Source: an uncultured delta proteobacterium
GTDB lineage: Bacteria > Desulfobacterota > Binatia > UBA9968
Assembly: GCA_963804165.1 (NCBI GenBank)
Contig: CAWDPO010000043.1
Location: 32,001 to 96,000 of the forward strand
DNA: 64,000 nt
Reading direction: 5' to 3'
The notes below the pieces were generated by a model, which was not told the origin of the DNA, did not search any database, and was given only the letters and a program-made list of their open reading frames with translations. The translations under genes and the position numbers were made by a program. How positions within the stretch are numbered: the stretch's first letter is position 1; each line of letters starts with the position of its first letter. Shown one piece after another: positions 2,811 through 6,105 of this stretch.

Positions 2811-3032
2811 TTAGACATTTGCCGATTGCTTGCTGGCGTCGTCAGGGAGTTCGGAAGCTTTGCCTTTTCCGAGCCGAACCAGCTCGTCGGTTGCGCTTGC
2901 TCAGGGTCAGCCACCTTTCATAAGCTTCGGCAACTTAAGCTTGAAAATCGCGGAGACGATGCCAGACGCTACACCTAGAGTGCCGGCAAGCACCACGGCA
3001 AGAGGACCGTATTGTTTCCTTTGGGTGCTCAT
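2811..3032 (-). CDS. Candidate 73-aa single-TM selenoprotein with GG-U-P-U-AS motif (not in ORF track)
   Basis: ATG overlaps the upstream stop (TAATG); TGA at 2909-2907 and 2903-2901; open for 29 codons to TAA 2811; hairpin cgagctg-GTT-cggctcg at 2886-2870. Confidence 0.55.
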
Positions 3033-3262
3033 TACGCCGCCCGTTGTTTCTTTACTTGCTCACGCAACTCTTCCAACTCGCGGCGAAGCCGATCTATCTC
3101 ATCGCTATCGCGGTGATGTGGCCCCATGCATATGAAACGACCGCCACTAGCTATAGTGCGCAGCACGACGACCACAACTAAAAAGCAGATCAGTAGCCCG
3201 ATTACAGGGAAGATCCACCAGAAACCCCACATCGGTCCCATCCATGGTCCAGGTCCCCACAT
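3032..3262 (-). CDS. Small membrane protein (G/W/M-rich N-terminus, 1 TM, coiled-coil tail; SHOCT-neighbour type)
   Basis: MWGPGPWMGPMWGFWWIFP, TM segment, EIDRLRRELEELREQV; RBS aggagg. Confidence 0.65.
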   Translation of the reverse strand: MWGPGPWMGPMWGFWWIFPVIGLLICFLVVVVVLRTIASGGRFICMGPHHRDSDEIDRLRRELEELREQVKKQRAA

Positions 3263-3448: not shown

Positions 3449-3649
3449 CTATTCAACGATGAAGCTCACCCACTTCTCGCCGTTGCGGTCGAAGGAGGTA
3501 ATACAATCGCAGTGCAGCGAAGAAGTATCGGCGCCGGTATCGAGCCTCGCCTCAACAAGGAGATTGCCCGGATGGATCTGAACCTTTTCCACCCATCCAA
3601 CCGTCGTTTTTTCACCGCCATCGACAGATGAAATCAAAGCAAAAGCCAT
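3449..3649 (-). pseudogene. Truncated RimK-associated aspartyl/'ATP-dependent Zn' protease family gene
   Basis: VGWVE...ARLDTGADTSSLH motif; stops at TAG after about 66 aa. Confidence 0.65.
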
Positions 3650-3704: not shown

Positions 3705-4259
3705 TCACAAACCTTTCTTCTCCAACCAAAAAAGTACGGCACCGAAAACTAAAACAACGGGCACAATCACTGGCCAGGGGTCCGTCCCGATCAAGGAAGG
3801 AATGGTCAGCTTGCCGTAATCGCCGAGCTTAAGAAGGTTATTTTGAATAAACGGATAGACTTCCGAGTAGAGACCGGCACCGATCAAAATACCGAGAACA
3901 CCGCGAAACAAACCGTCTAAGCGACCTTCGCCGAAGGCCGCGGCACAGGTGCCGGGTCAGAAGCCCAAGAGCAACATGCCGACGCCGAAGATCAGACCGC
4001 CGAGAATATTCGCGCCGAGCAGCGTCGGTTTGATGTGGAGATTGACCAAACCAAGATCGTGCAACGCGTAGACGCCGACCATGCCGACCAGGATCGCCGC
4101 GAACATGACTTTTTGCACCGTCAGATCGGTCCAACGGAAAAAGGACACGATCTTCTGATACTTGGTTACTTGTGCTTTTTGCAAAATAAAGCCAAACAGA
4201 ATTCCCGTGACGAGCCCGAGTACGAGGCGCGCCGGACCGGTAATTTCCAGTGGACCCAT
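3705..4259 (-). CDS. YeeE/YedE sulfur/selenium-compound transporter half B, 184 aa with in-frame UGA (Sec candidate at codon 101)
   Basis: GLIFGVGMLLLGF-TGA-PGTCAAAFGEGRLDG matches the family G(Y/F)CPGT motif; the two ORF-track pieces are in the same frame. Confidence 0.85.
3921..3941 (-). promoter_or_regulatory. bSECIS-like hairpin
   Basis: gcggccttc-GGC-gaaggtcgc, 9-bp stem with one G-U pair, starting 15 nt after the UGA at 3957-3959. Confidence 0.65.
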
Positions 4260-4261
4260 AA

Positions 4262-4783
4262 CTACACCCTCCGAAAGATCAGCCGCGCCATGATTGTTCC
4301 TGAAATCATCATTGCGATCAGAAAAATCCAACTGCTCACCGCCAATTGAAGCCCTCCACTGAGGGCGTGGCCGCTCGTTCAGCCATCGGCCAGTCGCGCG
4401 CCGAAACCGACGAAAATGCCACCGAGAATCCCGAGGACCCAACGCTGCGTGTTGCTTGTGCCGAACCGGCTCACCCACATGTCGGGAAGCGAGCCGCTAA
4501 ACGCAACGGCTTTTTGACTTAACCGCGCGGCCAGGTAGGCGCCGATGGGAATGCCGAGCACGAGCATAAATTGCCAGTCGACAATCGGCTTGACGTTATG
4601 CCAGTAAGCGTTCGCCGCCACATGATCCGGCGCGACCAGTCCAACCAGCATGCCAGCGGAGCGTGAGAAAGTAGTCGAAACCGACAGGTAGTAATTCGCG
4701 GTGTAGAACACAGCGATGTTAAGCAGGCCCAGCAGTAAACCTGCTTGCCACCACGACCATTCTTCTTTTTTGAGCCAGTTCAT
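4262..4783 (-). CDS. YeeE/YedE transporter half A, 173 aa with in-frame UGA (Sec candidate at codon 135)
   Basis: FGARLADG-TGA-TSGHALSGGLQLAVSSWIFL matches the family GCTSGH motif; frame stays open to TAG at 4262, next to the start of half B. Confidence 0.85.
4351..4366 (-). promoter_or_regulatory. bSECIS-like hairpin
   Basis: gccctc-AGTG-gagggc perfect 6-bp stem starting 12 nt after the UGA at 4379-4381. Confidence 0.65.
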
Positions 4784-4875: not shown

Positions 4876-5340
4876 CTACCGCCGCCGCCAGCCGCTCCAC
4901 ACTGGGAAGCCGCTGTCATCGCGCAGCTTCAAGACTTCATCTCCCTTCTTCACCTCCGCCGCGATGATCGCCGGTTTGCCCGCAAAAGTCGTTCTGGTGC
5001 CTTTCACCTCGACTTTGTCTTTCGGTTCGATCTTTACGTCTTGATTCTCGAGGTACCAACTCGGCCCAAGGTGCACAGAGACCGTTTCTTTATCGGTCTT
5101 CACGTTCATGTGAATTCCCGCTGCCATCCCTTTGTTCGGCGTGATCCGATCGATGCCGTCACTTCTCCGGAGATCGTTTCCGCCGCCTTTGGATCGTACA
5201 TTTTATTGTACTGTGTTCCCGGTCCCCAACCACCACTCCCTCGCCACATCATCCCCCCTCTTGGCTGCGCGAAGGACGACAAAGCCGCGAGCGAAATCGC
5301 GATTGCTCCGGCGCACAAAATTAAACCAAGTCTTCTTCAT
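4876..5340 (-). CDS. Exported OB-fold protein (MamS/MamX-like domain); frameshift near 5150
   Basis: Signal peptide, YDPKAAETISGEV...VSVHLGPSWYL...DKVEVKG...LRDDSGFPVW. Confidence 0.6.
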
Positions 5341-5393
5341 TTTTTTCACCTCCTTTCTGCTTCATGCGTTTGATGGTAGGCAATGAGTCGTAG

Positions 5394-5441: not shown

Positions 5442-6056
5442 TCAATACGTTTTTCGAAATTGCGAAAAGCGGAACCCTACAATTTGCGAACCTAGCGAAA
5501 AACGAAGCGCCCACCAGCGATCGGCAGCCGTCGGAAAGAGAACTCTGGCGCTTAAGAGCTTAGAGGATTCGCTCGGGGGTAAAGGCGCGTCCCCCAGCGG
5601 GCAGGGCGAAGCTGGTGTCTGCCGATGAAAAATTTCGGGCTCAATTTTGATGACGCTTTTGATCGAGTTGGAGACGAAACAATTCTCTTTGGCTTTTTCC
5701 AAGATTCGCGGCATGCGCGCAAGATCGTTGGCCGAAGCCAAGACGACTCGGGGCTTCACGACGATCTCGGTGATCTGAAAACCGCCTCCCTGGACCTTTT
5801 CTAATTTTCCCTTTGCCGTCGAAGACACACTCACCAGCGCGATTTTGGAAAACTCCGCGATGGCGAGCAAGGTGAGCGTGTAGCAGGTGTTCAGCGAGGC
5901 GACGAAGAGATGTTCCGGCGACCAATTGCTCTCCTTGCCTTTAAATTCTGGCGGCGCACCGGCGTCGATAGCCGGCAGCTTACCGCTTGTAACCCGTAAG
6001 TCCTTTTCACCTTTCCACTCGATCTCTGTCTCGTAAAAATAATTCGACTCGCTCAT
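5442..6056 (-). CDS. OsmC/Ohr family protein (C-terminal extension may be an indel artefact)
   Basis: APPEFKG...WSPEHLFVASLNTC...AKENCFVSNS with two conserved Cys. Confidence 0.85.
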   Translation of the reverse strand: MSESNYFYETEIEWKGEKDLRVTSGKLPAIDAGAPPEFKGKESNWSPEHLFVASLNTCYTLTLLAIAEFSKIALVSVSSTAKGKLEKVQGGGFQITEIVVKPRVVLASANDLARMPRILEKAKENCFVSNSIKSVIKIEPEIFHRQTPASPCPLGDAPLPPSESSKLLSARVLFPTAADRWWALRFSLGSQIVGFRFSQFRKTY

Positions 6057-6105
6057 TTTACCGTCCTCTGCCAACAGCGGGTTTTGACCGCCGTCTTTGC
6101 CGGAC

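Follow-up and report, generated by a model that had tools for sequence, protein, structure and literature searches.

The only member of the YeeE/YedE family with a solved structure is YeeE (TsuA) from Spirochaeta thermophila (StYeeE; PDB 6LEO and 6LEP, and 8J4C and 8K1R with YeeD). It is a single chain of ~330 residues with a central helix H7, which works with the partner YeeD/TsuB. As described in the structural report (PMC7449682), three conserved cysteines stand in line, about 7 Å apart, at the thin centre of an hourglass, with C293 touching the bound thiosulfate on the outer side. Variants C91A and C293A fail to complement in that work, whereas C22A complements. Here we describe two adjacent genes (A and B) that are homologous to the two halves of StYeeE and that carry in-frame TGA codons, read as selenocysteine (Sec, U), at the positions of the essential residues C293 and C91. 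They lie on a 64,000-nucleotide stretch of contig CAWDPO010000043.1 (assembly GCA_963804165.1, positions 32,001 to 96,000), which is referred to as the window and comes from an uncultured delta proteobacterium of the class Binatia.

Two other described systems are close to this pair. PmpA/PmpB from Serratia sp. ATCC 39006 and YedE1/YedE2 from Cupriavidus pinatubonensis are split pairs importing zero-valent sulfur. In both, the genes are adjacent, the homolog of the C-terminal half precedes that of the N-terminal half, each half contributes one pore residue (C293 or C91), and C22 is absent. The alignment in the report on PmpAB (PMC11582611) assigns the short PmpB to the N-terminal half, which holds Cys91, and PmpA to the C-terminal half, which holds Cys293; a PmpAB heterodimer is proposed there. 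According to the study of YedE1 and YedE2 (PMC10812762), both are required to speed the import of zero-valent sulfur in Escherichia coli, either one alone being inactive; a Cys-to-Ser substitution in YedE1 or YedE2 abolishes uptake, and uptake lowers oxidative stress. The second system is a Sec-YeeE/YedE family, entered in a review table (PMC13188914) with one Sec and the motif GUxSG. The same source treats families with a different Sec position as distinct subfamilies. A Sec-YeeE/YedE family is also found in a table of a 2022 review (PMC9312934), and file 3 of the Peng 2016 supplement names it ('YeeE/YedE family 5 / 5'), whereas the main texts of GOS 2008 and Peng 2016 do not mention YeeE/YedE by name.

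The elements of the pair in the window are as follows.

4262..4783, minus strand: gene A, starting with ATG at 4783 and ending with a TAG stop at 4264..4262, 173 residues, C-terminal half of YeeE/YedE (PmpA/YedE1-like)
4379..4381, minus strand: in-frame TGA of gene A, residue 135, RLADG-U-TSGH, read as selenocysteine and equivalent to StYeeE C293
3705..4259, minus strand: gene B, starting with ATG at 4259 and ending with a TGA stop at 3707..3705, 184 residues, N-terminal half of YeeE/YedE (PmpB/YedE2-like)
3957..3959, minus strand: in-frame TGA of gene B, residue 101, LLGF-U-PGTC, read as selenocysteine and equivalent to StYeeE C91
3945..3947, minus strand: codon of Cys105 of gene B (U-P-G-T-C), an additional cysteine peculiar to the clade and placed four residues past Sec

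Reading of the minus strand bears out the two in-frame TGAs and the lengths of the products reported in the first-pass annotation. Only two bases (4261-4260) separate the TAG of gene A from the ATG of gene B. Each start is preceded, ~8 nucleotides on its 5' side, by a ribosome-binding site of the GGAG type, and since that of gene B falls inside the end of gene A, the two genes are probably translationally coupled. Their adjacency and order are identical in all related loci examined that hold both genes.

With U set to C, both proteins match the Pfam family Sulf_transp (PF04143; gathering score of 27 bits), the comparison suggested in the first-pass annotation: gene A with 86.9 bits (E 2.4e-24, profile positions 171–307) and gene B with 61.1 bits (E 1.7e-16, positions 12–150). 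Gene B also gives a weak match to DUF6691 (26.7 bits, cut-off 27). Gene A aligns with residues 239–330 of StYeeE and gene B with residues 4–129, the homology of the two halves to StYeeE being supported by E values of 1.6e-6 and 6.5e-6. Residue 101 of B aligns without gaps with C91 and residue 135 of A with C293, and the pore columns are invariant in family alignments A3 and A4, where U is shown as C. Thr32 of B takes the place of C22, so that the third cysteine is absent. The pair thus differs from the full-length YeeE/TsuA type, a single chain of ~330–350 residues with nine helices and C22, in being divided into two genes of 173 and 184 residues. It differs from PmpAB and YedE1E2, which use Cys at both sites, in having Sec at both and an added Cys105 in B. 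Cys105 is kept in the Sec and Cys forms of the clade and in a Chloroflexota clade, whereas most other relatives have Ala, Ser, Gly or Val at this position.

The sequence of the genome (assembly of 7.5 Mb in 46 contigs, 81% complete) indicates that the organism uses selenocysteine. It encodes SelB (357 bits, cut-off 242), tRNA-Sec (76 bits, cut-off 47), and SelA and SelD, which score above their curated cut-offs with 610 and 385 bits, respectively. The genes selA, selB and selD are grouped on a contig other than that of the A–B pair (C16, about 139949-144339). SelD of this genome is probably itself a Sec-containing protein, since selD has one in-frame TGA of its own.

Close relatives of the pair were collected from metagenomes with six peptide patterns. 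Five of them omit the codon in question and the sixth demands Cys, so the sampling is not biased toward TGA. The 80 loci found (66–92% identity) show the following states of the two pore codons, given as A/B.

U/U: 48 of the 80 metagenome loci
C/U: 11 of the 80
C/C: 8 of the 80
A beyond the contig end or uncovered, B = U: 11 of the 80
GGA/U: 1 of the 80 (L069)
A = C, B not covered: 1 of the 80

Of the 79 loci covering the pore codon of gene B (one further locus does not), 71 therefore have TGA and eight have Cys there, and that of gene A is TGA in 48, Cys in 20 and GGA in one of 69 covering loci, with 11 missing. In the single GGA case (Gly; L069:549-551) the TGA of gene B is kept, and the codon is either that of an inactive variant or a sequencing error. 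Both TGAs recur in independent contigs, so chance does not account for the pattern. Among the 11 close loci of species-representative genomes (73–95% identity), seven are U/U, one is C/U, two are C/C, and one has U in A with B uncovered; their records are titled uncultured delta proteobacterium, Candidatus Binatia, Thermodesulfobacteriota, or candidate division NC10/Methylomirabilota. The proposition that orthologs from Sec-utilising relatives would always have Cys, which the first-pass annotation had named among the grounds for refuting its own reading, does not hold, as the orthologs mostly have TGA. By the sequences of these relatives, the double-Sec pair occurs widely in a single clade of uncultured bacteria, which the records name Binatia, delta proteobacterium or NC10. 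Where both codons are read in this clade, none of 68 metagenome loci and none of 10 close genome loci has Sec in A without Sec in B. A tree of the contiguous A–B DNA (61 rows, with the two codons left in the alignment) requires at least five Sec/Cys changes at A and at least three at B, so the exchange is recurrent rather than a single event.

Farther from the window the picture changes. In 69 more distant species-representative loci both sites are Cys wherever both pore codons are readable. There are two exceptions: the metagenome-assembled genome (MAG) of a Caldilineaceae bacterium (L206) has TGA in B alone, and the A codon of L165 is GGC. Of 401 sampled genomes from the phylum of the window, 130 match A and 137 match B at E ≤ 1e-10. 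The best 29 of these loci (40–51% identity) have TGA in 12 and Cys in 17 copies of gene A, and Cys in all 29 copies of gene B, so that at this distance only the Sec of gene A is common to the window and its phylum relatives. The scan of the phylum with B finds TGA on the pore codon of B only in farther relatives (31–37% identity), in nine genomes of three other families, all nine with Cys in A. Together with L206, these loci (L054-L062, in genomes G217, G157, G091, G046, G323, G118, G084, G212 and G239) form a set of ten in which TGA occupies the C91-equivalent codon of B and is followed by a downstream hairpin, as in the window; the difference is that A keeps Cys in all ten, and identity to B of the window is 31–47%. 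In the protein database, full-length relatives of B have Cys at the pore site in 119 of 120 cases and Trp in one, a near-uniformity that is expected if gene callers stop at TGA.

A few copies found in these scans are damaged. Two further rows of the phylum scan with TGA in B are broken copies, in which the TGA stands elsewhere than at the pore codon. One genome has a second copy of the pair (L052, G327:C85:28000-30500), with TAA inside A and a non-pore TGA in B (ML-U-VHL), which is probably a decaying paralog.

A survey of sequencing runs gives a limited view of the two codons. Contigs from two RNA libraries (X15 and X16) span both with 85–99% likeness, and none of the 40 differences listed falls on either codon, 124 more being unlisted. 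The DNA run X1 contains pieces identical to the window, of which the one closest to the B codon stops at 3954 and so misses it by three bases. No run contained half of the sampled words, and the four runs compared were contigs.

A bacterial selenocysteine insertion sequence (SECIS), as defined in the literature on bSECISearch, is a stem-loop shortly downstream of the UGA with G in the apical loop. Both genes have a hairpin of this kind, with the loop AGUG in A and GGC in B.

4351..4366, minus strand: SECIS-like hairpin of gene A, GCCCUC-AGUG-GAGGGC, 14 nucleotides past the UGA, apical loop 21–24 nucleotides past the U of UGA
3921..3941, minus strand: SECIS-like hairpin of gene B, GCGGCCUUC-GGC-GAAGGUCGC, 15 nucleotides past the UGA, stem starting 19 nucleotides past the U of UGA

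The stem of the gene B hairpin has nine base pairs in the window and a seven-base-pair core across the clade, which RNAalifold recovers from 38 distinct TGA-bearing sequences. One of its pairs is UA in 32 and CG in six of the sequences, with both sides changed, and another shifts from GC to GU in eight. Pairing holds in 90.6% of cells, compared with 41–53% when the 3' partner is slid. For gene A, 89.5% of cells are paired in 35 sequences in the register of the window, a slide by +1 gives 81%, and one pair is CG in 18 and GC in 15. The survey of orthologs suggested in the first-pass annotation thus finds the TGAs mostly kept and one compensatory pair in each hairpin. The local fold is stronger in Sec forms than in Cys forms. 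For gene A, the medians are −11.5 kcal/mol (n = 41 unique) and −4.6 kcal/mol (n = 17), with a one-sided Mann-Whitney p of 2e-7, and for gene B they are −14.1 (n = 45 unique) and −9.8 kcal/mol (n = 7), with p of 1e-5, both p values being overstated by the relatedness of the sequences. Folding z-scores of the whole stretches are unremarkable (−1.97 for A, −0.16 for B), the informative signal being confined to the local hairpins. In each of the other lineages with Sec at the B site, a hairpin of different sequence (for example, GGUGGC-GGUC-GCCACC) stands in the same place, 14–20 nucleotides past the UGA and with G-rich loops. Thin as its covariation is, the pattern of the hairpins matches the prediction for SECIS elements.

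Changes beyond the TGAs are mainly synonymous. Their share among the codons changed relative to the window is 0.67 downstream and 0.62 upstream of the TGA of gene A (47 relatives), and 0.57 downstream and 0.75 upstream for gene B (63 relatives), pointing to purifying selection on both sides of each TGA. Because the Sec machinery is present, TGA and Cys codons alternate in relatives, hairpins follow the TGAs, and downstream changes are mainly synonymous, both in-frame TGAs are very probably selenocysteine codons and both genes very probably encode selenoproteins. The central claim of the first-pass annotation, Sec in place of the conserved Cys in both halves, agrees with this result, the TGAs standing on C293 (A) and C91 (B) of StYeeE and behaving as Sec codons.

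Taken as a whole, the pair very likely encodes two Sec-bearing halves of one YeeE/YedE-family channel, with sulfane sulfur as the likeliest cargo. A would be its C-terminal and B its N-terminal half, each supplying one re-entrant loop with Sec in the place of the pore cysteine. U135 of A would correspond to C293 at the outer, substrate-capturing site, and U101 of B to C91 at the central site. By homology with the single-chain YeeE and from the published work on PmpAB and YedE1E2 (PMC11582611, PMC10812762), as far as those accounts of the split pairs go, the halves are expected to assemble as a heterodimer. A reactive chalcogen species might then be handed across the membrane through brief contacts with both selenols, and Sec would speed the exchange or resist over-oxidation. 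As in YedE1E2, the likeliest substrate would be zero-valent (sulfane) sulfur or polysulfide, with thiosulfate or selenium species less likely. By rough judgement, sulfane sulfur or polysulfide is the leading single candidate, at a little under an even chance; thiosulfate is appreciably less probable, selenium species somewhat less so again, and other substrates share what is left. The double-Sec relay and the possibly altered substrate put forward in the first-pass annotation stay hypothetical.

It may also be imagined that the selenols of A and B meet at the subunit interface and work as a redox gate or covalent relay, through a transient Se-Se or Se-S-Se bridge between the subunits with Cys105 of B as the resolving thiol, an arrangement that we consider quite unlikely. 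The lack of A-Sec without B-Sec in the clade, where C/U and C/C both occur, would fit a dependence of the Sec of A on that of B.

Several points weigh against the reading of the pair as a Sec-bearing heterodimeric channel for sulfane sulfur. The incorporation of selenium in A and B is read from DNA and not from protein, and the frameshifts of a neighbouring gene speak for imperfect base quality of the assembly, although independent contigs carry the same TGAs. The covariation of the hairpins is thin, with one compensatory pair each, and kinship makes the shuffle controls, as well as the Mann-Whitney p values, overstate. For the gene A region RNAalifold returns no consensus hairpin, since the pairing register differs by one base between two sub-clades. 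The heterodimer is argued from homology and analogy, and the proteins of PmpAB and YedE1E2 have ~130–140 residues (four helices each), compared with 173 and 184 here. No NCBIfam model reaches its cut-off for A or B. The models of the thiosulfate transporter TsuA (NF041049 and NF052577) give 27–50 bits against cut-offs of 400 and 645, and those of the selenium-linked YedE/FdhT (NF033796) and seleno_YedE (TIGR04112) give 37–38 bits against 350 and 29.7 against 200, so that the substrate cannot be transferred from TsuA or YedE/FdhT. The first-pass annotation had seen no TusA/YeeD partner nearby, and a search for a gene of the TusA/YeeD/YedF type (PF01206) gives no match in the whole genome at its 81% completeness. 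Gene neighbourhoods also vary between loci and outline no clear pathway.

Among the alternatives, the one that survives best, unlikely as we judge it, is a channel for selenium rather than sulfur, in which selenite, selenide or selenopersulfide would be taken up or trafficked for selenophosphate synthesis, as proposed for YedE. An organism that uses Sec does need selenium, but the pair lies apart from selD, selA and selB, its scores with the YedE/FdhT and seleno_YedE models are the low ones given above, no YedF/TusA-like gene accompanies it in the genome as assembled, and a selenium-dependent transporter for the uptake of selenium would be circular when selenium is low. Less probable by a clear step is that A and B each assemble with themselves as homodimers, so that there would be two separate channels in which the Sec residues never face each other. 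The halves are homologous to each other, and gene A also aligns weakly, as a second match, with the N-terminal loop of StYeeE. Such independence is hard to reconcile with the unvarying A–B adjacency and order in every examined related locus holding both, or with the inactivity of YedE1 or YedE2 alone as reported for that pair (PMC10812762).

There is very little to recommend the view that the TGAs are real but act as stops, or are read through with a standard amino acid, leaving truncated or Trp/Cys proteins and no selenoproteins. That TGA also works as a stop codon here is shown by gene B, which itself terminates in one. Truncation, however, would remove the pore loop and the last helices, parts that purifying selection still maintains; the TGA stands exactly on the Cys column and swaps only with TGY, apart from the one GGA; conserved hairpins follow at SECIS distance; and wherever TGA at the B site is met in an independent lineage, a hairpin particular to that lineage lies in the same place. 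That the TGAs are sequencing errors or recent nonsense mutations, in pseudogenes or in genes really encoding Cys, is scarcely credible: a MamS-like neighbour with two frameshifts relative to intact orthologs, a downstream retropepsin-like gene reduced to 66 residues, and the invariable Cys of B in the 29 phylum relatives at 40–51% identity would suit it, but 71 (B) and 48 (A) of 80 independent metagenome contigs share these TGAs, as do eight (A) and eight (B) of the 11 close species-representative loci, with hairpins specific to the TGA forms, mostly synonymous downstream changes and a full Sec machinery.

The surroundings of the pair differ from locus to locus. Usp, a P-type ATPase, a TauE-like half, OsmC, thioredoxin, a chromate transporter and catalase are met near it; these neighbours hint at stress or metal(loid) handling and define no pathway. 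In the window, one gene upstream of the pair is of particular note.

4876..5349, minus strand: gene of an exported MamS/MamX-like protein, in three frames with two frameshifts, perhaps an operon partner but in a single sub-clade

One of the frameshifts is in the signal-peptide region and the other near GEVT / IDRITPNKG, and they are due either to assembly indel errors or to decay of the gene. The intact ortholog has 154 residues and a signal-peptide-like start (for example, L098:1423-1884). It has no match in the Pfam copy searched, a match to MamS stays under the cut-off (25 bits), and the nearest Atlas clusters carry PF26390 MamS_MamX with a score of 0.98. Of the 49 loci with sufficient DNA on that side, 19 have the gene upstream of the pair, and all 19 belong to the closer sub-clade. 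The first-pass annotation had placed an exported OB-fold protein at the head of the operon. The upstream exported protein looks like one with a MamS/MamX domain; its gene precedes the pair in no more than the 19 of 49 loci and is broken in the window. In some relatives (L103:1490-1870 and L081:1471-1953) gene A is separated from the MamS-like gene by a short open reading frame that corresponds to the C-terminal half alone of the TauE/SafE sulfite-exporter profile.

Directly downstream of gene B (3452-3649, minus strand) is a 66-residue fragment matching the first third of retropepsin-like peptidases (RloA3 61.6 bits, cut-off 210; Pfam Zn_protease). It appears to be a gene remnant, since no frame continues the match. 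Farther along, inspection by eye of 1271-2442 and 3032-3262 on the minus strand finds a short open reading frame ending in a motif of the type HCHxxxHxxxGM, like the C terminus of a multicopper oxidase, an exported protein rich in His and Met (2161-2442), and a small membrane protein rich in Trp and Met (3032-3262). An OsmC-like open reading frame is located at 5442-6074. By eye, these neighbours suggest a metal-stress neighbourhood. In the closest relative, with 91% DNA identity over the pair, a long open reading frame follows downstream (L143:3851-5530), which resembles by eye a pyridine-nucleotide-disulfide oxidoreductase with a rhodanese-like end.

Comparison with the catalogued Sec-YeeE/YedE family separates the two genes. 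Gene A resembles that family in its motif, since G-U-T-S-G fits GUxSG, in its Pfam family and in its SECIS-like hairpin, and the same Sec is present in A of 12 of the 29 phylum relatives. The catalogued family has one Sec and one motif, whereas here gene B is also a selenoprotein, with the motif G-F-U-P-G-T-C at another pore position. Because its motif (F-U-P-G-T) does not fit GUxSG and its Sec position differs, gene B would be a separate subfamily by the criterion that the review applies to Sec position (PMC13188914). A full-text literature search, with the groundwater MAG selenoproteome study and bioRxiv supplements outside its scope, found neither a B-site Sec nor a double-Sec pair. Whether such pairs were already catalogued, a question that the first-pass annotation could not settle, is thus answered in two parts: the type of gene A is, and for the type of gene B and the double-Sec pair no entry was found. 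Gene A is a further member of the catalogued family, and the Sec of B and the double-Sec pairing are new to it.

The published entry of one Sec and GUxSG for this family is therefore incomplete. Gene callers cut A and B at the TGAs, with the result that the Sec forms are missing from predicted protein sets. The pair puts Sec at both transport-essential residues of the only solved member of the family, and its natural Sec/Sec, Cys/Sec and Cys/Cys versions, at 70–90% identity, offer a ready comparison for the contribution of selenium to a chalcogen channel. If the two selenols do act as a relay, the pair would be a membrane channel whose conduction step is selenium chemistry.

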